From the NCBI GenBank assembly GCA_963775465.1, contig CAVZIW010000013.1, forward strand, positions 32,001 through 96,000: DNA of 64,000 nucleotides. The letters are read 5' to 3'. The notes below the pieces were generated by a model, which was given only the letters and a program-made list of their open reading frames with translations, made no database searches and was not told where the DNA came from. Origin of the DNA: Candidatus Bathyarchaeota archaeon (GTDB taxonomy: Archaea > Thermoproteota > Bathyarchaeia > Bathyarchaeales > Bathycorpusculaceae). Position numbers and translations under genes: made by a program. Positions within the stretch are counted from its first letter, which is position 1; each line of letters opens with the position of its first letter. Below, one piece after another: positions 27,838 through 38,310 of this stretch.

Positions 27838-28314
27838 TCATGCCTTGACAGGTTTTGTTGAACTGTTAGACGAGGAGAGAAAACTGTATGCAGTGACCAG
27901 AAAAAGGCAAATCATTACCAAAACTCCCGTGTAGGAAAAGTTGCTGAAAAGTGACAAAATCAAAGTCACAAGAGGCAATGGAAATAATAGAGCATAAATG
28001 AATATGATAAAGGCAAGCTTGTTACCTACACTTTCTTTTTTTATGTAGCTTTTTCCGAAAAATACTCCAGCTAATCTCCCAAAGCCGCTAGTGCAGGTTT
28101 TGCATTTGTAGCAGTTGCTGCAGCTGATTCGGCGTAAAACCAAGTAGATGAGGAAAGCTAATATAAGCAAGTAAATCCAGCCGGCTATTTGATTGTAAAG
28201 GAGAACACTTAAGAAAGCAAGAAACACCCATGCGAGAAGTCCAAGGTTGCCTCCGATGAGGAATTTTCGGTTGAATCTAAGTTTTTCTTCAGTCAACACT
28301 TTCCCTTCAATCAA
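27838..28314 (-). CDS. 4-TM membrane protein with CxxCxxCxxC loop
   Basis: Hydrophobic helices flanking CSNCYKCKTC. Confidence 0.75.
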   Translation of the reverse strand: MIEGKVLTEEKLRFNRKFLIGGNLGLLAWVFLAFLSVLLYNQIAGWIYLLILAFLIYLVLRRISCSNCYKCKTCTSGFGRLAGVFFGKSYIKKESVGNKLAFIIFIYALLFPLPLVTLILSLFSNFSYTGVLVMICLFLVTAYSFLSSSNSSTKPVKA

Positions 28315-28383
28315 AAAACCAACGATTCAATTATAGATTATTTGTTTAGGCAATAGTTTAGGACAGATTTATTTTAGGTTTGT

Positions 28384-28665
28384 TTATTTTTGTTTGATTA
28401 TTCCATAGCTTTGTTTTTTCCAGGCATCACGGAACTTATTATAGTAGTCTATTGGTTGAAAAACTGGTGCGTATATTAATGACCATTCAAGTCCGCATTT
28501 GCATAAGGCATATACTTTTTTATTTTTAACATCCGCCAAAATCTGAAGAAGCTCTTTTCGGCATTTAGGACAGTAGTAGGGTCCATTCACCATTTGTTTA
28601 GCATCTTTGGTTAGGATTTTCATTCGGCTGCCTGGAAGTTTTTGTTTGCCTTTATCTGAACTCAT
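28384..28665 (-). CDS. Elf1-like Zn-ribbon transcription elongation factor homolog
   Basis: Basic N-terminus, YYCPKC..LLQI.D.K.K...ALCKCGL...PVFQPIDYYNKFRD fits the Elf1 pattern; start placed at MSSDK. Confidence 0.65.
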   Translation of the reverse strand: MSSDKGKQKLPGSRMKILTKDAKQMVNGPYYCPKCRKELLQILADVKNKKVYALCKCGLEWSLIYAPVFQPIDYYNKFRDAWKKQSYGIIKQK

Positions 28666-28876
28666 CTTTGAATCCACTAGTGCATAGTCTCTGGGCAAGA
28701 TATACCATTCCATTCTAAAACTAAAATTAGCAATTTTTAACAAAAGATGTTAACAAGACTTTCAATCTAAATTACTAGATATCGTTTGGAAACGGGTGTT
28801 ACTGGCAGATAAGGGGATAACTTACTGATTAGAAGTTCATAAAGCAATTAAGTAGAAAAAATCTGAATATGTACAG

Positions 28877-29503
28877 TTGGAAGAGCCCCAAATGAGCAAA
28901 AAACAAGTAGGTAATATTGCTGAATATCTAAACTGCCAGAGCATCTTAGAGAGTCAAACTAGTCTGCTGTACAAGACTTTATCGGATAAGGTTGAATTTC
29001 CGCTCATAAAGACCCTTTTAAAAGAAATTGAGTTGGATAGCAAGAAACACTCCTTCCTCCTCAAGGGAGTAAGCGAGAGCATTAATCAGGCGAGAAGCAC
29101 ACAAAAAGAATGCGCAAAATCAAATCAAACTCTGCAAACAATAAGCAATATTCTTAAAGAATTGGCCAACATAGAAAAAGTTGACTCTGGGGATTTGAAT
29201 AAACTTAGTGAAATATTTGTAACTTTGGAAACAGAGATGGGTGAAGAATACTACATGCTGGTTCAAATGAAAACACTGGAAAGAATGACGAAGATAATAA
29301 ACGAAGAATACACTATTGATTTAACTAAAGTAAAAAGCATTTTCTTAAAAATCATTGAGGATGAAGAACGTCACATAGAGATACTTGAGACGATTAAGCA
29401 GCTGACAACTAAAAAAGAACAGGCAAGCAATGCTCCCTTTGTGAAGTTTCGAAATCCAGATGCGTGGTTCAAACCTAAGCCATCTTCTGTATACGAGTAT
29501 TAG
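28877..29503 (+). CDS. Ferritin-like (rubrerythrin-type helical bundle) protein
   Basis: EIELDSKKH and EDEERH motifs in helical repeats. Confidence 0.7.
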   Translation: MEEPQMSKKQVGNIAEYLNCQSILESQTSLLYKTLSDKVEFPLIKTLLKEIELDSKKHSFLLKGVSESINQARSTQKECAKSNQTLQTISNILKELANIEKVDSGDLNKLSEIFVTLETEMGEEYYMLVQMKTLERMTKIINEEYTIDLTKVKSIFLKIIEDEERHIEILETIKQLTTKKEQASNAPFVKFRNPDAWFKPKPSSVYEY

Positions 29504-29738
29504 AAAGCAGTAACTTAATACATGATCTACTTCAAAAAAGTTGTTTAATAATTTTTAACCAATTTACTAGATTTCTGATTGAATTTCTATTGACTTTGTA
29601 GGAAAATAGAGGTTGTCATAAGTGTTAGTTAGATAAATTACTTTTATCATAACTATTGAATAAGCATTGGTGTGAATTACTATGTTTATTAAACTAGTCT
29701 TAAAATAGTATGATTAACATGTATTTAGTGTGAATTAT

Positions 29739-30041
29739 ATGGCAGATTTGAATAAACCAAAAAGGGTCAGATTAGATGTTAAAGCTACTCCAGTGAAAGA
29801 AGTACCGGAAGGCAAAAAGATAGCGAGGAGACCAGAATATGATGAGGCATTCAATAAGATCATGGACAGCCCAGAGAAGATTTTCAAGGTTGAAGTAGAA
29901 GGCAGAACAGTAAAGACAATGTATGCTCCATTTGCTTCCAGAGTAAAAGCATACAATAGAAAACCAGACAGAAAATTCAATGCACAACTCAAAATAAGAA
30001 GCAAAGAAATCTACATTGTTAAAGTAGCTAAGTCAAACTAG
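29739..30041 (+). CDS. Small basic hypothetical protein
   Basis: Lys/Arg-rich 100-aa ORF followed by T-runs. Confidence 0.7.
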   Translation: MADLNKPKRVRLDVKATPVKEVPEGKKIARRPEYDEAFNKIMDSPEKIFKVEVEGRTVKTMYAPFASRVKAYNRKPDRKFNAQLKIRSKEIYIVKVAKSN

Positions 30042-30232
30042 AATAATCTTTTTTCTACTTTTTTAGGCAACTTCTTTTTGAGTAAATTTCCTTTATTCTC
30101 CAAAACTATTCTTTAATAAAAAATAACTCACAACAAAATCAAGATACTCATTTTTTCAATACTTATAGCATTTTTATGTTGGTTGAAGTCTTATCCTTGT
30201 TAACTAATGAAGAGAATTTTAATGGAGAATAA

Positions 30233-30388
30233 TTATTTGATCTTCTTTTTTATAAAGATTGGAGCATCCTTTATCAATTTGCGGCAGTCATTACATACAA
30301 TGGGCTTATGAACATAGTCTTTCAATATATGATAACTTGTTGTTTTCTTCGTTTCTGAAATTTTCTTTCCACACCAATCGCAAATCAT
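30233..30388 (-). CDS. Zn-finger microprotein (51 aa), not in the ORF track
   Basis: MICDWCGKKISETKKTTSYHILKDYVHKPIVCNDCRKLIKDAPIFIKKKIK; AGGTG RBS. Confidence 0.75.
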   Translation of the reverse strand: MICDWCGKKISETKKTTSYHILKDYVHKPIVCNDCRKLIKDAPIFIKKKIK

Positions 30389-30584
30389 TAAGACACCTTA
30401 TGGAAACTTATGGATTTTGAAGTTCTTCTTTTGCCCACCATGAGCATTAGATTTAAGGTTTAAAAGGTATATTTCTAAAAACAGCATATTTCAGAAAAAA
30501 TCAAGCAAATGTTTTGGGTCAGATTCCATAAGCTCCGAGAATAGTTATTCGGGGTTTTTAGCTGCGTTGGAAATTTATAGCGTT

Positions 30585-30968
30585 CTAGACTTTTGGATTA
30601 GAGTTATTTTTACTCAAGTTTTCCTTGACCCTGAACCTAACAATTTCTTTAACTAAATCAAAAGGGATAGGTTCATCTAATGGAAATCTAATTGTGCCCT
30701 TGCTGGTTTTGTAGGAATTTAGTTTTTCTTTGAAGGCTTCGACACCTGATGAGGTGGGAAAAAAGCTTATATGATCTTTAAAAGCTGCAAAATGAACCAA
30801 GTTGCCATTTAGCTTGTAAGTTGGAATCTGATAGCTGATAGCCTCTTCAGCTTGAGGCGCAACATCTTTAACGGCTTTCCTTAGTGCCTTTAAAATATTC
30901 TGGACATCTTTAGGGAATAGATTGACGTATTCATCTATCGTTTTGAAGATTTTCTTGGACATTGACAA
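30585..30968 (-). CDS. DUF1801 / YdhG-like protein
   Basis: TIDEY, EEAISYQIPTY, VHFAAFKDHISFFP, SKGTIRFPLDEPIP. Confidence 0.88.
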   Translation of the reverse strand: MSMSKKIFKTIDEYVNLFPKDVQNILKALRKAVKDVAPQAEEAISYQIPTYKLNGNLVHFAAFKDHISFFPTSSGVEAFKEKLNSYKTSKGTIRFPLDEPIPFDLVKEIVRFRVKENLSKNNSNPKV

Positions 30969-31172
30969 TTGAATCCCCTAAAAATAATATTCTTTGGTAA
31001 TTTATTTCCTTATTTCCCTTCTCTCCAAAAGTAGTGCTTAATGGTCAATATGTTGTTGCTTTCTTTTCTTAGGTGAGTCCAATATCGCATGCCCAAGGGA
31101 TTGGAATGGATATGGCAAACAAAAAACAGATTGATTCTTGAATCTTTCCTAAACAAGTTAGTGATCAAAGAA

Positions 31173-31305
31173 GGGGGTTTGTGAGTTCAGGGTTGTTAAC
31201 TTCACGCAGATAAAAAACCCTGTACAAAGGAGAATACGGGGAAAATGGCATCTGCTTTTGGTTAATACCTGACTCACAACCGCATGAGGTATTTGCATTT
31301 TCTCC
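31173..31305 (+). ncRNA. Putative structured RNA (nested stems, alternative fold)
   Basis: Three nested helices plus a competing pair of helices; G-U pairs favour the + strand. Confidence 0.45.
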
Positions 31306-31612
31306 ATTTAATATTTGAATCTGAAAAGGATTAATAACAATATGTGATTGCGCTCATACAGCAACAAATGGAGTACAACTCTAACTTCTGTATTAACCAG
31401 TTTAATCTGTGTCATCTAATTTTTGATTCTAACTCTGCAAGGCAAGCAATTTTTTGTCAAATACGGAAGAGTGCCATAATCAGGGATTGAAACATAAAGG
31501 CCTACCTGCTAACAAAACATCAATTCTGAATCATTTGTAATTTAATAATAGAGTTTGATAAAATCTTATATGTAAGTTGGATTAAAAATAGTTATCAATT
31601 TAAGGTGATGCT

Positions 31613-31900
31613 ATGCCAACTGAAAAAGAAATCACAGTATACGGAGAAAAAGCATTAGAAGTGGTTGATGTACTTAATTCTACAACCCTTAAAATCCTTA
31701 AATCCGCAAGGAAAACGCCCATAAATATCACAACACTATCTAAAGACCTGAACCTAAGTGAACCCTACATAAGTGAACAGGTAAGAGCCCTGGAAGATCT
31801 GGGACTAGTAAGCATAACATATGAACAAGGCAAGAGAGGAATAAGCAAAATCAGTGCTTCTGCCCTTGAGAAAATCACAATAATCCTAAAAGATGAATAA
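31613..31900 (+). CDS. ArsR-like HTH regulator
   Basis: INITTLSKDLNLSEPYISEQVRALEDLGLV; AGGTGA RBS. Confidence 0.85.
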   Translation: MPTEKEITVYGEKALEVVDVLNSTTLKILKSARKTPINITTLSKDLNLSEPYISEQVRALEDLGLVSITYEQGKRGISKISASALEKITIILKDE

Positions 31901-32118
31901 CCTCTATCTTTAAAATAAACCAAATAAAGTATGCAGACAGATGTTAAGACGAAGATCAGAGTCATGGAAAGCAATTTTTATGGAAATTTATTCTTAATAT
32001 GCTCACTATGCAACTGACTGGTCAAAAAAAACTTAAGCAACAAGTACATTATAGTAATTGCAGATAGTTTGATGATAACTTTATCTTTCTAGTTTTGCGC
32101 TTACCATGCATCTAGATT

Positions 32119-32388
32119 TTGAGAGGTGATGTAATATTGAAGGTGTTTGATGCGATGATATTAAAAAGAGAAATGCAGACTAATTGCAGATTAGACGTAA
32201 AGATTCTTGATACTTCGAAAGATGGTCTTATCTTGAGAATTATGGAAAACATAGTTGATAAGGATTCTCTCGAGCTTATAAGAGATTTTGTTAACCGACA
32301 TAAACTTAATATTTTATTAGATAATGGGGTTTACTTCATTTCTAAGGAAAGCCTTTCCCCATATGAGCCTACCTATTTATCAGAATAG
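32119..32388 (+). CDS. Hypothetical protein
   Basis: 89-aa ORF; internal GAGGTGA RBS suggests a start a few codons later. Confidence 0.6.
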   Translation: MRGDVILKVFDAMILKREMQTNCRLDVKILDTSKDGLILRIMENIVDKDSLELIRDFVNRHKLNILLDNGVYFISKESLSPYEPTYLSE

Positions 32389-32760
32389 CGTGATCCAAGT
32401 TTATAAACGGGCAATGAACCGTAAAATTCCAATTTGAGAAAGGCAATTTGGATTGTTGTCTTTTTTTGAAGTCACATATACTCTTTTTGTTAATTTGAAT
32501 ATTTTTAAGAAGGTAGTTGCAGTTGGCTGAATGTCCTTGCTGTGGCAAATAAAATGAGAAACCAGAAAGGACACTTAATAATCATTTTTTTACCCTTGAA
32601 GCATATGTTTGCAATTGTTGTGGTAGACATTTTCACATTCAAAAATAGAAATACAAAACTAATTCGGGACAGAATAACTAAGCGCTCCCTAAGTGTAGTA
32701 TCAAAATGTAGCCACAAACTCTTTAATTATTTTTTACAAATAATTGTTTCTAGTGATTTT

Positions 32761-32946
32761 ATGGCAGAGCCAGTTTTTGAATGGTATTGCGATAAGGCAG
32801 GAAAGTTCAGGTTCAGACTAAAAGCTGCCAACGGAGAAATAATTGCAGTCAGCGAAGCCTACCAATCCAAAGAAGGATGCGTAAACGGAATAGAATCAAT
32901 CAAAAAGAATGCTCCAATCGCAAAAATAGTAGAAGCCAAAGAATAA
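32761..32946 (+). CDS. YegP/DUF1508-family protein
   Basis: FEWY.DKAGKFRFRLKAANGEIIA.SEAY.SK..C.NGIESIKKNA; start at ATG 32761. Confidence 0.9.
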   Translation: MAEPVFEWYCDKAGKFRFRLKAANGEIIAVSEAYQSKEGCVNGIESIKKNAPIAKIVEAKE

Positions 32947-32999
32947 GAAAACAAAATGTTTAATCCACCTTCTTCTCTTTTTTGCTTCAAAACATTAGT

Positions 33000-33317
33000 T
33001 CAGAATTTAATTTGTCTTAATTCTTGCTCCAAACAGTCAAATAGAGGGGCATCTTGTTTTACAAGTATAATAAATGTCTCCTTGAACTGGAAAATACGTG
33101 CTTCAACATTTTTATTATTAAAACCAAGTCCATACTCTTCTCTAGTGCTTATCATGCCAGGAGTTGTCTGCAACAAATTCACCATACGCAAAAAGTCCCT
33201 ATCATCAAAGGTAAAAGCATAAACTTCAGGAATTGGCTTATCTGAAAGTTTTTTCCAAACATTGATAAGAATTCTATCAGAAACTTGATCAGTAGACGGA
33301 AGTTGAGGCAACTGCAA
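33000..33317 (-). CDS. Hypothetical protein (possible degenerate zincin)
   Basis: 105-aa ORF with GAGG RBS; FIILV...CLEQELRQI. Confidence 0.55.
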   Translation of the reverse strand: MQLPQLPSTDQVSDRILINVWKKLSDKPIPEVYAFTFDDRDFLRMVNLLQTTPGMISTREEYGLGFNNKNVEARIFQFKETFIILVKQDAPLFDCLEQELRQIKF

Positions 33318-33520
33318 AACGATATCCTCACATTGATTGATATAATATTCGTGTAAAGCAATTGTTTAAAATGTTACTGTAATTTGACGGATTTATCTCA
33401 TCAGTTTACTAATATTTTTCTCATAACTTTAAAGCTTAAGCCAAAATTTGGGAAAATAGTTTTTGAAATATTTCTATTTCTGAAATATGCCTTTTAAGCT
33501 TTAGAATCAATTTCATTATA

Positions 33521-33590
33521 TGAGGAGAAAGGAAACCTTCATCAAAGAAGGAAACCCTCGCCTAAAGAGAGGAAGCACCTCTCTTTATTA
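33521..33590 (+). ncRNA. Putative small RNA / hairpin cluster
   Basis: TTTTAAG TATA-like box about 28 nt upstream; GAGG/CCTC, CCTTC/GAAGG and a perfect 10-bp TAAAGAGAGG/CCTCTCTTTA stem. Confidence 0.35.
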
Positions 33591-33688
33591 TTTAATACTT
33601 GCCGGCATTCATAAATGAAAAAAAGATTTGTTGTCTCCTTTTGCAATCACATATGCTCTTATTCTACTTTGAGTTGAATCTTTTGGAG

Positions 33689-33841
33689 ATGTTGTTGGTT
33701 CACTGTCATAGTTGTGGGAAGGAAGTTGAAAAACCTTCAAGAATACTGAAGAACTATAGCTTTACTATTCACGCCTATAACTGTGAAAAATGTCACCATA
33801 ACTTCAAAGTCAAAATAAACCAATCAGAATATATTGTTTGA
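33689..33841 (+). CDS. Small Zn-ribbon protein (Cren7-like pattern)
   Basis: VHCHSCGKEVEKPSR...FTIHAYNCEKCHHNFKV; paralog at 36999. Confidence 0.75.
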   Translation: MLLVHCHSCGKEVEKPSRILKNYSFTIHAYNCEKCHHNFKVKINQSEYIV

Positions 33842-34011
33842 GCTAATGTGATGCTCCATAACTAATTTTTAAGGTTTCAGTTGATTTGTATATTTGCTGT
33901 ATTTTAAATCAAAATATTAATGGTCAAATTATTGTTCTTATCTGTTCCTCCTTTGGAACGGTTTGTTCCATAATGAGAGTAATAAGATACAATCTGTCTA
34001 GATAGTATTGT

Positions 34012-34542
34012 ATGCAAATCAAAAAACCTAAGAGACTAAGCCTAATTACTGTAATGATGATTTCCCTAAGTGTTGCATTAATCTACACAGCAACAAATAA
34101 CAATCTAGCTTTTGCACCAGCTCCCATATCATCTTCAACACCCTCAGCATACTCAAAATCGGATCCCAAACCAGTAAATATAGAAGTAAAGGTTACACCT
34201 TGGGGAAATATGTATAGAGAAGAACCTGACACCAAAGCAGATTTCGATGTTGAATTGGTATATCCCAACCAAAATGAAAACTTTACAACTAACTCTTTTA
34301 CCGTAGTTGTAAACGCAGGTGCATACTTCTGGATTGTTGAAAAAGCCCACTATACCAGTGACTTATTCTCTGGCGAAAGATGGATAAACATCAGCAAAAC
34401 ACAATACTCAGTAGACCTGCAGAAAACTTTCACATTTAACCTGACAAATGTACCAGAGGGTAATCATTATTTGACATTAACGGTAATATTTCATGAGGGA
34501 ACCTGGAACAACGCTACAGCATTTTTTAATGTTTTAAAATAA
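34012..34542 (+). CDS. Secreted/membrane-anchored beta-rich hypothetical
   Basis: Signal peptide, S/P linker, LTNVPEGNHYLTL Ig-like end. Confidence 0.8.
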   Translation: MQIKKPKRLSLITVMMISLSVALIYTATNNNLAFAPAPISSSTPSAYSKSDPKPVNIEVKVTPWGNMYREEPDTKADFDVELVYPNQNENFTTNSFTVVVNAGAYFWIVEKAHYTSDLFSGERWINISKTQYSVDLQKTFTFNLTNVPEGNHYLTLTVIFHEGTWNNATAFFNVLK

Positions 34543-34986
34543 GATGAATCTGGTTAGCCCTCATAGTGAAAATCCTATTTTCTTTTTTGTTGTTTATTCA
34601 AGTGGTATTTTATTCGTATTTAATGTAAAGTCTCTCCATTTATCATGGAAGTAGCTGAAGAGGCTCAAAAACTTGATCAGTATAGAAATACATGTTTCTA
34701 GGCATTTCAAAGCCTATTTTCATATTTTACTATAGATTTTCATGTTGAGTTGGCACCCTGATTAGAAGAAATATACTCTGGCAGGAAAGAGAATACTTGA
34801 AATGCAAGAAAGAAACATACACATAGGAAGATACAGAAAGATAAAAGAGACAGTTATCAAAAGCTATCTGTAAAATAGTTTATAGAGTGTTTTTCGTTGA
34901 TTTTCTAGGGAAATAAGATGTTTTATGATGTATCACAGATTAGGGCGCATATTTAGAGCATATTCTTTGATTTAGACTTCTGTGTT

Positions 34987-35823
34987 CTAAACTGTGGAGT
35001 TATCAGGCTTAGTTACGCTTCTCTTCAGATGCCTCACATACAGCACCAGAGAGATAACAATTATCACCAAGATGGCAATAGTTGCCAAGGCTAACGATGT
35101 TATCTGTGAAGTAGTGCTATTGTCTACTGGGATAGTATTTGTTGGTGTTGGAGTTGTTGTTGGATTAGACGATGGATTTGGAGTAGAGGTGGAAACAGAG
35201 CCTTCAGGAATAATAATTGTTTGTGTGTTACTCCAATCGCTTGTTTCACCTGTATAGACGTAATAGTCATACGTTCTTGGGTCAAATTCAGTGGGGGTAG
35301 TTTTGAGGATTGTTTGATATCCTATGAATGCTTGAACTTGAAAATCTACTTGGCCAGCAATGGGGAAACCCTCTATTTTCCAAGCATAATAATCGCTTCC
35401 ATTATTTGAACTGAAACCGAAATCAATAATATCGTATTCATGTCTTGTTGCTTCAAAATAATATCCTACAGGATAATAGCGCCAGTAGTCTCCATAATGA
35501 CCCTTCGAGCTGACATTATACCATAAATTGATGTAGTTACCATTCGTATCTTTGAATGTGGTGAAAGGCGAATTCTTAATAATGAATTCTATCGATATAT
35601 TTTGTACATAGTAACCCGCTTGGATTATAATAGTTCTTCCGGTATAGGCGTCTGTACCATAAGTTGGCGGTACATCATATGAATTATCCACGTATTTTAA
35701 AGTGAATTCTGGAACAGAAGGTTTAGGTATTGCCTGAGCAGAAACAAATTCAACCATTATCAGACCTGAGAGTGTTAAGAGGGTTACAAGCAAAATAGAG
35801 AGAACTCTACCCAAACAGCTCAT
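34987..35823 (-). CDS. Secreted protein with C-terminal TM anchor
   Basis: Signal peptide, IPKPSVPEFTLK, ETSDWSNTQTI, P/T/S linker, TM. Confidence 0.85.
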   Translation of the reverse strand: MSCLGRVLSILLVTLLTLSGLIMVEFVSAQAIPKPSVPEFTLKYVDNSYDVPPTYGTDAYTGRTIIIQAGYYVQNISIEFIIKNSPFTTFKDTNGNYINLWYNVSSKGHYGDYWRYYPVGYYFEATRHEYDIIDFGFSSNNGSDYYAWKIEGFPIAGQVDFQVQAFIGYQTILKTTPTEFDPRTYDYYVYTGETSDWSNTQTIIIPEGSVSTSTPNPSSNPTTTPTPTNTIPVDNSTTSQITSLALATIAILVIIVISLVLYVRHLKRSVTKPDNSTV

Positions 35824-35966
35824 AGATGCAATATGGAAACTTTGATAATTAAAGCCTTATCGTAAAGGATCCTTGACCATCCTTAGTCAAAGTTTCTTTA
35901 CTAAAAAGTAGAAGCAAACCTAATTCTCCCAAATAATTCTTTAAATGATTAGCTGAATTGCTTATT

Positions 35967-36242
35967 TCAGTTTACAGAGATGTGATTTTTTTGCAGTTTA
36001 ATTTTACCGTGAAAAACAAGGTATGAAAAAATTGCAATTGCTGACCCCACAACACTAATCAAAATACCAACATGGAATCTTGGATAAGTAGTGATTACTT
36101 GATTGTTTAAAGTTATTATTTCAGTAGTTGAAGAGGCATTTAAGATGCCACTTACAATAAGAATAACACCTAATAACAGAAGTAAGGGTGCAATTATTCT
36201 TCTAAATACCCCAATCAAGTCAATTGAAGAGTTATTTAACAT
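35967..36242 (-). CDS. Small 2-TM membrane protein
   Basis: Two hydrophobic helices. Confidence 0.65.
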   Translation of the reverse strand: MLNNSSIDLIGVFRRIIAPLLLLLGVILIVSGILNASSTTEIITLNNQVITTYPRFHVGILISVVGSAIAIFSYLVFHGKIKLQKNHISVN

Positions 36243-36386
36243 ATTTAGCCCTTCAACAACACTACATTCAAACTATCTCTTAACTTTTATTGTACACGAA
36301 TACAACGTTCCAAAATTGTTCTTTAATGGTCATTAAATAGCTCCTCTAGCACCCAGGTCAGCTCCAAGTAAAGGAATTGATTTAGA

Positions 36387-36596
36387 ATGAGAATTATATG
36401 TGAAGTATGTAAGTTGGAAGGTTACCTTCAGCAACTAGGCAACTACAGTAGAGTACGCCACTACAGAGGCAAAGGCAAATTCTACTATCACCAGCAAACC
36501 AGAGATTGGGTTCAAACTCAACTACGTAACATTGAACAATTGAACACCACAACAGATCAAAATACAGAGTTAACTGTTCAAACCACTCCCAGTTGA
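36387..36596 (+). CDS. Small CxxC/His protein upstream of tRNA (possible integrase N-fragment)
   Basis: CEVC..EGYLQ...RVRHY...FYYH; AAGGA RBS. Confidence 0.65.
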   Translation: MRIICEVCKLEGYLQQLGNYSRVRHYRGKGKFYYHQQTRDWVQTQLRNIEQLNTTTDQNTELTVQTTPS

Positions 36597-36652
36597 AGGT
36601 TGCAATAAACTTAAATCAAGCTTAGATAATCCAAATACAAGCAAAACCAAGA

Positions 36653-36731
36653 GCGGCCGTCGTCTAGTCTGGTTTAGGACTTTAGCCTTCCAAGCTAATG
36701 ATCCCGGGTTCAAATCCCGGCGACCGCACCA
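36653..36731 (+). tRNA. tRNA-Gly(TCC), CCA encoded
   Basis: Acceptor GCGGCCG/CGACCGC, anticodon stem TTAGC/GCTAA with TCC at 36689-36691, T arm CCGGG-TTCAAAT-CCCGG. Confidence 0.96.
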
Positions 36732-36998
36732 ACTATTTACAATAATTAGGACTCATTTGAGCTTATTTGGCTCAGGCTCTGACCTTATTATTTTTCGTTA
36801 AGAAACTTGGGTTCTTTGAAGCCTTTATCGTCTAAAGATTAACTCCTTCTCACATAGCGTGGACTTTTCGCCATAATATTGGTAGACAACAGAAGGTTAT
36901 TGTAAATACTTCACAACCTAATTTGTAAGTAAAAATTGAAACAAATAGTGCATAATCCTTTTATCGCACGTTAAAACCATGCATAAAAGTGGATCAAA

Positions 36999-37157
36999 AT
37001 GGTAAAGTGCCCTCGATGCAGAGCGGACTTTTGCAAACTCCAAAGCAAAATGGAAAACTCTTACTTCGCCGTAAACATTCATAGTTGCGATAAATGTCAT
37101 CACGTCTTCAAAGTATTTCGCGTCAAATACCCAACAACTAATCCTCGTTTAAGCTGA
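36999..37157 (+). CDS. Small Zn-ribbon protein (52 aa), not in the ORF track
   Basis: MVKCPRCRADFCKLQSKMENSYFAVNIHSCDKCHHVFKVFRVKYPTTNPRLS; aligns with the 33689 ORF. Confidence 0.75.
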   Translation: MVKCPRCRADFCKLQSKMENSYFAVNIHSCDKCHHVFKVFRVKYPTTNPRLS

Positions 37158-37575
37158 CAGATGTTTCTAGCCCGTTCTATCCCATCCCCGAAACAACTAT
37201 TGCCCAGCGCAACGTATGTTGTTTAAAGGATACATAAAATCTTTCTAAAAAAGCGCAATAGCTATTTTTGTTACCCAATCTTACGTACTAACCGAATTGA
37301 ACTTGTAGATCACAAAGACTTTTTGAGAATAATTTGAATTGGCAAGCATCTTCAACTTTGGCTGAACAACAAAGAAGTAGCCACTTTACCCAATTATTCA
37401 GCAAATAAACAGGTCCAAGTTCCGGGTAAACGCGAAAATTCAATAATTCTGGCTTATATAGATCAGTCAATTTTCGTGCTAACTTTTGACTTCAATTTGA
37501 TAAGAACAGAAGAGCGATCGAAAAAGTGAAAAGCAACGCTTTACTGATTAGAGGTAATTGATGGTGACTTTAAAA

Positions 37576-37779
37576 ATGAGTGATATTGTAAATATGGCAG
37601 CTATTCAGTTAAACGGCGATAAACAAAATTTCATCCTAGACAAGAAAGACTTCAAAACAGGAAGTCGGGGATATTATGGAACCGGTAAGATGGTTGCAGC
37701 GGGCAAAAAATATCAAATAAGTATTCAAGCAGTAGAAATCGGTTCTAAACCTAAACCTGAAGAAGAGAAGAAAAAGTAG
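37576..37779 (+). CDS. Small basic beta-strand protein
   Basis: KDFKTGSRGYYGTGK...KYQI...IGSKP; GGTGA RBS. Confidence 0.8.
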   Translation: MSDIVNMAAIQLNGDKQNFILDKKDFKTGSRGYYGTGKMVAAGKKYQISIQAVEIGSKPKPEEEKKK

Positions 37780-37806
37780 AGTTTATTCTTTCTAATTTTT
37801 GTTTTT

Positions 37807-38310
37807 CTAAGGCAAGACTGTTGCGTTAAGAATCGAGACAACTTTGCGTGGTTTATCTCTTGCGTCAGTAGCTACTCTACCGATTGCGTCAACAACATCC
37901 ATTCCATCAATGACTTTGCCAAACTGCGGATGCTTGCTGTCTAAGTAGTTGTTATTCACCAAGTTGATGAAGAATTGGCTGCTCCCTGTGTCTGGTCCTG
38001 CATTTGCCATAGCGATGGTGCCTCTATCATTGCGGTTTTTTCTTGTAAATTCGTCTTTAATATCCGGTATCGATTGATCGCCACATCCGGTCCCTGTTGG
38101 ATCTCCGCCTTGAATCATAAATCCATCAATAACGCGGTGGAAGATTGTTCCGTTGTATGTTCCGCTTTGGACCAGATTCTTGAAGTTATCTGTCGTAATG
38201 GGCATGTCGTTGCGCAGTTGAATTGTTACGTCGCCCATGCTTGTGTGAAGTAAGATTCTTGGCCCATTTGCGTATTCATCTAGGGATTGGTTTGCTTTTT
38301 GTCCTGACAT
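37807..38310 (-). CDS. Cyclophilin-type peptidyl-prolyl isomerase
   Basis: FHRVIDGFMIQGGDP, AMANAGP..GSSQFFIN, FGKV..GMDVV. Confidence 0.95.
   Translation of the reverse strand: MSGQKANQSLDEYANGPRILLHTSMGDVTIQLRNDMPITTDNFKNLVQSGTYNGTIFHRVIDGFMIQGGDPTGTGCGDQSIPDIKDEFTRKNRNDRGTIAMANAGPDTGSSQFFINLVNNNYLDSKHPQFGKVIDGMDVVDAIGRVATDARDKPRKVVSILNATVLP

Follow-up and report, generated by a model that had tools for sequence, protein, structure and literature searches.

Only a small number of archaeal regulatory RNAs have been characterised, and to our knowledge none is described for the Bathyarchaeia, abundant uncultured archaea of sediment and wetland; a literature search on non-coding RNA of Bathyarchaeota showed nothing relevant among the papers listed. 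ROSE and fourU are bacterial RNA thermometers that lie upstream of small heat-shock genes and hold the Shine-Dalgarno (SD) sequence inside a melting hairpin, and 6S RNA is a rod-like RNA that binds RNA polymerase (we know of no 6S RNA in archaea). The small RNA sRNA41 of Methanosarcina mazei is reported to mask ribosome-binding sites (review PMC5867862). The present analysis concerns an element at positions 31173 to 31305 of a stretch of 64,000 nucleotides (nt) from a Candidatus Bathyarchaeota genome (GenBank assembly GCA_963775465.1, contig CAVZIW010000013.1, positions 32,001 to 96,000; the whole stretch is hereafter the window), for which a preliminary description had proposed a switch-like RNA with two mutually exclusive folds, read from the plus strand. 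It is a conserved, non-coding structured element with compensatory changes in its helices, and it represents an undescribed family. By comparison among genomes, the window copy is a divergent, rare paralogue of a lineage-specific structured-RNA family that spans two genera of one Bathyarchaeia family. The best explanation found, held tentatively and at somewhat less than an even chance, is that the element specifies a promoter-coupled structured RNA of the minus strand that may act as a riboregulator by masking ribosome-binding sites.

Compared with these systems, the element resembles sRNA41 as reported (PMC5867862) in that it would give a small structured archaeal RNA with an exposed pyrimidine-rich loop complementary to SD tracts, for which repression of translation initiation is proposed. 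No homology of sequence or structure to sRNA41 was detected and the two organisms belong to different phyla; unlike sRNA41, the present RNA is tied to a conserved regulated promoter, is represented in a genome by several ancient paralogues and in some loci clearly serves as a 5' leader. The likeness to ROSE and fourU lies in a structured leader that precedes Hsp20 in several relatives and carries a pyrimidine tract able to pair with the SD sequence. Conversely, the SD sequence here lies at least 20 nt outside a very stable rod (~-40 kcal/mol), most copies are not beside Hsp20, and the Rfam thermometer models were unmatched. As in 6S RNA, the overall form is that of a rod-like hairpin of ~140-190 nt with internal loops, and the commonest locus type adjoins the gene for TFS, an RNA-polymerase factor; there is no large central bubble and the Rfam 6S models did not match, which leaves a likeness of overall shape only.

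The preliminary description had recognised no known family, and the comparison with Rfam 15 (4227 models) agrees. Only a tRNA passed the gathering threshold in the whole window, the region 30900-31700 at E<=10 gave only CRISPR-DR9 (14.6 bits, E=5) and anti-hemB (13.8 bits), both far below their gathering scores, and seven related loci gave no matches at E<=0.1. We know of no Rfam model for sRNA41. The element is neither RNase P RNA nor signal recognition particle RNA, both of which are located elsewhere in the assembly, and no K-turn, H/ACA, C/D box, T-box or TPP-like motif could be fitted when the element was compared by eye with the features of each.

The window copy folds into one long, imperfect hairpin (hairpin 1; Table 1). 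In plus-strand letters it comprises, in order, helix P1 (GUGAGU/ACUCAC), a GUUAA(C) box pair, helix P4 (GCAGAU/AUCUGC) and an apical stem (CCCUGUA/UACGGGG); the paired segments are 31176-31200/31261-31281, GCAGAT/ATCTGC at 31206-11/31250-55 and CCCTGTA/TACGGGG at 31218-24/31235-41, and the apical loop at 31225-34 reads CAAAGGAGAA, or UUCUCCUUUG in minus-strand letters. On the plus strand this fold, fold A of the preliminary description, is the minimum-free-energy (MFE) fold at -44.2 kcal/mol (z -3.22), and the minus strand forms the mirror hairpin at -39.6 kcal/mol (z -3.98). None of 200 dinucleotide shuffles was as good for either strand, so that the hairpin exceeds chance in the shuffle comparison that had been suggested for it, but folding picks no strand.

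The second fold fared differently. All quoted segments of both folds are present at the positions given for them, and all 17 pairs of fold B (31238-47/31296-305 and 31264-70/31287-93) are standard. When enforced, however, fold B reaches -30.6 kcal/mol against -44.2 for fold A, a deficit of 13.6 kcal/mol, its pair probabilities are close to zero, and four of its 17 pairs are broken without compensation in the sister species (alignment by eye). The relatives that were looked at form their own small local hairpin where fold B would lie (by eye, unscored), and no complement to the apical strand that might serve as the fold B partner was seen by eye in these sequences. The idea of two mutually exclusive folds is not sustained by these results.

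They also bear on the wider proposal that the element is a riboswitch, attenuator or thermosensor that changes between fold A and another fold in response to a ligand or to temperature and gates the downstream gene. The conserved internal loops would suit such a sensor, as would the U run that precedes the next gene in three settings (window, sister species and Hsp20 loci) and the stress or metal flavour of downstream genes (Hsp20, CorA, P-type ATPase, Y-family polymerase). The genes downstream are, however, too diverse to answer to a single ligand, and in at least 12 of 50 loci no gene is co-directional. The weakness and lack of conservation of fold B, the position of the TFS SD sequence outside the hairpin and the failure of the Rfam riboswitch and thermometer models to match make such a switch a very improbable reading. 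A place among two-state attenuators in particular finds no conserved competing fold in the sister species and the members viewed, and no single functional class among the downstream genes. A riboswitch or attenuator in the broad sense, or a sensor of another design, could still be reconciled with the results.

Homologues detectable by BLAST were too few for an analysis of covariation, which therefore required a covariance model. By BLAST the element occurs in only one of the 119 other genomes of the genus (G022, a sister species, at ~88% identity), and an exact-pattern scan recovered it from five metagenome contigs, one genome contig and no viral contigs, in two haplotypes only. A first model, R1, built from the window, sister and contig sequences, found diverged full-length matches in other species and was rebuilt as R2; the window copy matches both models over their full length. 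R2 reaches 61 of the 120 genomes of the genus when E<=0.01 is required, and a single genome may give as many as five matches; two of six genomes of a second genus (g21) of the same family are matched as well. Searches with stricter Infernal filters gave no match in 115 sampled genomes from the other families of the order or in 135 sampled genomes outside the family across the class. With such homologues and with helices that covary, the suggestion of a novel archaeal non-coding RNA has gained considerable substance.

Covariation was measured on 32 non-redundant best-strand matches over 37 pairs, with 500 shuffles and a control in which partner columns were slid. Standard pairs were formed in 85.0% of cells (73.6 +/- 0.7% in shuffles), 30 of the 37 pairs had changes on both sides (20.0 +/- 1.8 in shuffles), and 150 cells carried double changes (57.9 +/- 6.0 in shuffles); no shuffle reached the observed value for any of five covariation measures. 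The covariation score of 0.365 fell to 0.151 or less when the partner columns were displaced by one to three positions. Helix P1 exists in several versions, among them GGCAAAU/AUUUGCC, GCGGGU/ACCCGC and GGCGAAUC/GGUUCGCC in addition to that of the window, and in P4 three consecutive pairs switch from A-U to G-C, while the GUUAAC box pair is almost invariant across the family. It should be noted that pairing is inflated by the fitting of the alignment to the model, and that relatedness among the sequences also inflates the counts, points that tell against the interpretation given here; nevertheless, the conserved hairpin is hard to doubt in view of the slide control and of the number of distinct helix versions.

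At least three subfamilies can be distinguished: the canonical subfamily, group 3 and group 1, to which the window copy belongs. The canonical subfamily is syntenic across many species, where it lies beside genes for MobA-like nucleotidyltransferases and MinD/ParA-like proteins. The assembly that contains the window (G000; 2.4 Mb in 15 contigs) has a canonical copy of its own at C1:27770-28015 (locus L097 1321-1524), promoter motif included, between genes for a ParB-like protein and a MinD/ParA-like ATPase. This copy was missed by the filtered search and was found through the promoter motif; with the filters off it scores 22.7 bits (E 0.0018). An unfiltered search near the MobA-like or TFS paralogues of G000 found no second copy there.

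Conserved sequence beside the hairpin appears to reveal how it is transcribed. A promoter-like module, with a consensus of an AT-rich TATA-like box, ATGTGAYTG, 6-8 variable bases and (C)ACNACAAC, is separated from hairpin 1 by 64-71 nt in the copies counted by hand. It is recognisable at that position in nearly all copies read, including six of genome G248 from the other genus, and its proximal box has diverged in L083 and in some group-3 copies. Five genomes each contain the motif 2-6 times, against zero for a reversed control pattern, and it also occurs without a hairpin. Of the 15 distinct copies of the motif in these genomes, one is inside a long open reading frame (ORF) and 14 are intergenic; on the TATA side of ten of the latter an ORF points away from the motif, with its start 9-119 nt from ATGTGA, whereas only three have an ORF on the other side. 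The window itself holds a second, hairpin-free copy on the plus strand (33628-33841), in which TTGTTGTCTCC...CAATCACAT is followed by a TATA-like box at ~33657-33668 and by the ATG at 33689 of a 50-amino-acid (aa) CxxC...CxxC zinc-ribbon ORF (33689-33841); the TATA centre and this ATG are 26-27 nt apart, which is the arrangement of an archaeal mRNA without a leader. Because the bare motif faces genes on its TATA side, the module is best taken as a promoter that fires into the hairpin, which would place the RNA on the minus strand. With the usual archaeal distance between TATA box and start site, ~26 nt from the TATA centre, the TATA-like box at 31330-31337 would set the start of the RNA at ~31305-31309. 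Module 3, considered as an RNA hairpin, was set aside, as a candidate pair beside GAYTG does not covary (by eye), and a scan for promoters and terminators of bacterial type gave nothing informative.

The genes behind the bare motif include those for small zinc-ribbon proteins, for small regulators of HTH_45 and Lrp type, and for an ABC ATPase and a glycosyltransferase; examples in G000 are an ABC-transporter ATPase and a family-2 glycosyltransferase. In genome G087 two small HTH_45 winged-helix genes stand directly behind the motif (L096 1533-1805 and L101 1567-1800). The ATGTGAYTG...ACNACAAC boxes may be bound by a factor that regulates its own gene, and the proteins encoded at these two loci are candidates for it.

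Gene order points in the same direction as the promoter. On the minus-type strand, an ORF of at least 100 aa lies within 270 nt of the hairpin in 21 of 50 loci, and seven of these ORFs are TFS homologues (Pfam) that start ~20 nt past the element, a distance that leaves no room for a TFS promoter of its own. Upstream ORFs on that strand (MobA-like, MinD-like) also run the same way. Past the element, a U run of at least five occurs on the minus-type strand within 200 nt in 30 of the 50 loci, and within ~60 nt in about a third of them by manual tally. Oligo-U terminates archaeal transcription, and the U6 run of the window, kept as U7 in the sister species, is a candidate terminator or attenuator. 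Between the predicted 5' end and hairpin 1 the window has a weak local hairpin; in relatives this position is occupied by a well-formed second one (AACGC..GGAU..AUCC..GCGUU), which shows some covariation.

Energy tests and counts of wobble pairs do not speak with one voice on the strand, and they contain much of what weighs against the reading preferred here. Raw MFE favours the plus strand in 35 of the 50 loci, by 4.4 kcal/mol on average, and on the model-fitted alignment pairs that would be G-U on the plus strand outnumber A-C by 103 to 57. The preliminary description had argued from wobbles that are G-U only on the plus strand; this holds for the window copy, which has three such pairs, but the sister species has two plus-strand A-C mismatches that become G-U on the minus strand. 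Further, the complement of the loop tract is not enriched in the genome (12 matches against eight for a reversed control), and GGAG pairs with the canonical loop only via wobble. At 12 of the 50 loci the only ORF downstream is convergent, and 17 loci lack either kind in range, so that the RNA cannot be purely a leader. Finally, the window copy has diverged, with promoter boxes that agree only in part with the consensus, and it could be decaying.

The strand results are also what an independent plus-strand small RNA would be built on. Such an RNA would expose a purine-rich loop (GGAG / GGAAGAGAGAGGGGG), start from its own weak TATA box ~25 nt before P1 and end before the neighbouring promoter. 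In addition to the MFE and wobble counts, three hot spots of G-U pairs (columns 24, 25 and 40) would turn into mismatches if the minus strand were read, many copies have TATA-like boxes 20-35 nt upstream of P1 (by eye; CCTAAACA at 31148-55 in the window), and T runs follow hairpin 1 or 2 in several copies. However, the plus strand is rich in G and U and its shuffles fold well too; once composition is corrected for, z favours the minus strand in 41 of the 50 loci (mean -4.7 against -3.4). The sole wobble hot spot internal to a helix is A-C on the plus and G-U on the minus strand in 13 of 32 sequences, and the column reads GC 10/GU 10 in the minus alignment. AT-rich spacers would yield TATA-like boxes and T runs by chance, the supposed plus-strand promoter region coincides in TFS loci with the start of the TFS coding sequence, and the near-constant spacing to a promoter that faces the hairpin would be left unexplained. 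An RNA of this kind is unlikely on balance. The minus strand is preferred here because promoter and gene order are taken as better evidence than energy tests that disagree among themselves, and the RNA is probably, though by no means certainly, read from it, contrary to the strand first proposed. As a caution on method, a count of G-U pairs in one sequence alone favoured the strand that is probably incorrect.

The near-constant distance between hairpin and promoter might alternatively reflect a role at the level of DNA, with the inverted repeat extruded as a cruciform or bound by a protein as an upstream element of the promoter or of a divergent gene. Such a role would agree with GUUAAC boxes that form palindromes and hardly vary, with the lack of a clear preference for either strand, and with TFS loci in which the DNA of the hairpin abuts the gene start. 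However, followed along the direction in which the promoter fires, the element comes after the TATA box and would be transcribed anyway. Arms ~100 nt apart change together between paralogues, with A-U replaced by G-C at at least five pairs, which fits base pairing and not one protein on both arms. In the asymmetric internal loops one side is conserved while the other varies, and G-U/A-C intermediates are tolerated. A function confined to DNA is thus improbable.

What a minus-strand RNA might do is suggested by its apical loop. In the canonical subfamily the loop holds an 11-nt tract, CUCUCUCUUCC, that is nearly invariant (nine of the 11 columns are identical in all 22 members), and a UUCUCCU motif is common to the window copy and its group-1 relatives L060 and L061. 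SD-type sites precede the starts of the ArsR gene (GGTGA), the DUF1801 gene (AGGGGAT) and the TFS gene (GGAGATGA), and the loop of the window copy is complementary to AGGGGAU ahead of the DUF1801 start with one wobble (by eye). Complementarity of an exposed loop to SD sequences is a property shared with small RNAs that mask ribosome-binding sites, as a functional likeness and not as membership of a homology family. The genes that follow the RNA in the window and in relatives encode TFS, Hsp20, CorA, a P-type ATPase, a Y-family DNA polymerase and DUF1801, and together with the bare-promoter genes they look like a regulon of stress or defence flavour.

From these parts a unit can be proposed in which a regulated promoter would be followed by a small 5' hairpin and then by a rod-like hairpin of ~105 nt in which the GUUAAC boxes are fixed and the apical loop is pyrimidine-rich. 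The window's unit would run leftwards on the minus strand from the promoter (31367-31330) through a start at ~31307 and the hairpin (31281 to 31176) to the U6 run (31126-31121) and then the DUF1801 gene. The product may be a riboregulator, as a leader or as a small RNA, that would be switched on together with the regulon. Its CU-rich loop (UUCUCCU, or the 11-nt tract in the main subfamily) could pair with SD-type purine tracts and so hold back translation, either of the following gene in cis or of other mRNAs of the stress-flavoured regulon in trans; this anti-SD mechanism, which resembles what is reported for sRNA41, is speculative.

A broader proposal would make these RNAs a new class of archaeal riboregulators: promoter-coupled rods, with at least three ancient subfamilies per genome, that form the RNA arm of a Bathyarchaeia stress regulon in which a single transcription factor, perhaps the small HTH_45 protein encoded behind the motif, would turn on protein genes and RNAs alike. 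This is decidedly doubtful as it stands; if true, translation of TFS, Hsp20, metal transporters and a translesion polymerase would be under the control of these RNAs, through the CU loop or through internal loops that sense signals. For metagenome-assembled genomes the comparative support is unusually clean, with covarying helices, orthologous subfamilies, an attached promoter and a near-invariant loop tract, and it yields a testable unit of promoter, RNA, candidate regulator and candidate regulon in an uncultivated lineage.

The window copy can be compared with its counterpart in the sister species, whose hairpin shows one compensatory change, from C-G to A-U, and a helix P4 that is shifted in register. 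In the sister copy ~75 nt to the right of the hairpin (window ~31312-31386) are deleted, the promoter module among them, the loop CUCC is lost too, and the ArsR gene is frameshifted. Additionally, a gene for a predicted membrane protein of 148 aa lies between DUF1801 and the element in the sister species (L012 1795-2241) but not in the window, so that the long gap of the window partly reflects gene loss or gain. The element is no better conserved between the two (~88% identity) than its flanks (86-91%). The window copy may be functional, with its promoter boxes, loop motif and U run kept, or it may be on its way out, as its counterpart in the sister species seems to be.

These observations would also be accommodated if the window copy were a decaying relic, or the leaderless mRNA of a 49-aa antisense ORF (31307 to 31158), in either case without function as RNA. 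The ATG of this ORF coincides with the predicted start site, and rarity among genomes, loss of the promoter in the sister species, the frameshifted ArsR gene beside that copy and the level of identity would all fit a relic. Decay sits poorly with a window copy in which every helix is retained and the loop motif, promoter boxes and U run are still present, and with four metagenome runs that all read T31256G, a difference that lengthens P4. The ORF is interrupted by three 1-nt indels in the sister species, GUUAAC-box spacing modulo 3 is distributed 14:13:12 over 39 loci, and the longest ORFs across the 50 loci are unrelated (median 30 aa) and share no peptide; the element's conservation, for which the 49-codon frame had been named as a possible cause, does not extend to that frame. 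A copy without any role as RNA is accordingly a rather remote prospect. Small ORFs of 10 aa and 6 aa on the plus strand and a leader peptide of 16-19 aa on the minus strand were also considered and rejected, their starts and frames being unconserved (by eye).

A search for RNA runs that cover 30400-32000 found none. The four runs, of DNA from wetland and soil metagenomes, confirm the sequence of the locus and all read G31173A in addition to T31256G; two metagenome contigs likewise have A at 31173 and G at 31256. The G at 31256 extends P4 by two pairs, and the T in the window may be a minority allele or a choice of the assembly.

The preliminary description had also considered an RNA of a mobile element, an idea that is not supported here. 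Only one copy of this type is found by BLAST in the genome, the paralogues read within a genome differ in helix sequence (save one identical pair in G248 that shares its flank), and the ends of the unit (AT-rich on the 5' side, ...ACAACAA on the 3' side) are not inverted repeats, which speaks against a miniature inverted-repeat transposable element. No TnpB was found above the cut-off in G000, against a TnpB omega-RNA, and the insertion sequence IS200 in locus L057 has separate end hairpins of its own. To the right of the element, the 10-mer GGATTGAAAC at 31484-93 resembles a CRISPR repeat; it lies at the 3' end of 31455-31493, which reads ...CAGGGATTGAAAC and is kept as ...ATTGAAGC in the sister species. 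A k-mer scan of the assembly found no array and the 39-mer has no second copy, and a CRISPR/CreTA mini-array was rejected in favour of an isolated chance match.

Table 1. Features of the element and its neighbours in the window (boxes in plus-strand letters).
Feature	Position	Strand	Basis
DUF1801 gene (202 nt past the element)	30585..30968	minus	ORF call and Pfam DUF1801, E 2.9e-19
U6 run (50 nt past the hairpin base, ahead of DUF1801)	31121..31126	minus	sequence
Hairpin 1 (long, imperfect)	31176..31281	minus, inferred from promoter direction	folding of both strands, covariance models, covariation
Predicted 5' end (~31305-31309) and weak 4-bp local hairpin	31282..31310	minus	TATA spacing
Promoter module, firing leftwards to the hairpin	31330..31367	minus	TATA-like box ATTAATAA 31330-37, proximal box ATGTGATTG 31342-50, distal box ACAGCAACAA 31358-67
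ArsR-type gene, 95 aa	31613-31900	plus	ORF and Pfam

The DUF1801 gene is the next gene on the strand inferred for the RNA and could be co-transcribed with it or regulated in cis; it has a TATA-like box of its own, seen by eye only. The intergenic gap, put at 640 nt in the preliminary description, measures 644 nt from the DUF1801 start (30968) to the ArsR start (31613). The segment was also said to be richer in GC than its flanks, which is correct locally (0.41-0.42 against 0.31-0.38); its value is that of the genome mean (0.41), and the oddity is the surrounding low-GC stretch. From ~28 to 38 kb of the window, the element included, GC is 0.33-0.37 and many short ORFs have no Pfam match, and the stretch ends near a tRNA-Gly gene (36653-36728/31). 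The stretch at 28000-38000 may be an acquired island. The ArsR-type gene has paralogues in G000 at C3:13702-13966 and C4:139031-139309, one of which is 91-94% identical yet split across two frames, and in genome G114 the gene is present in tandem copies.

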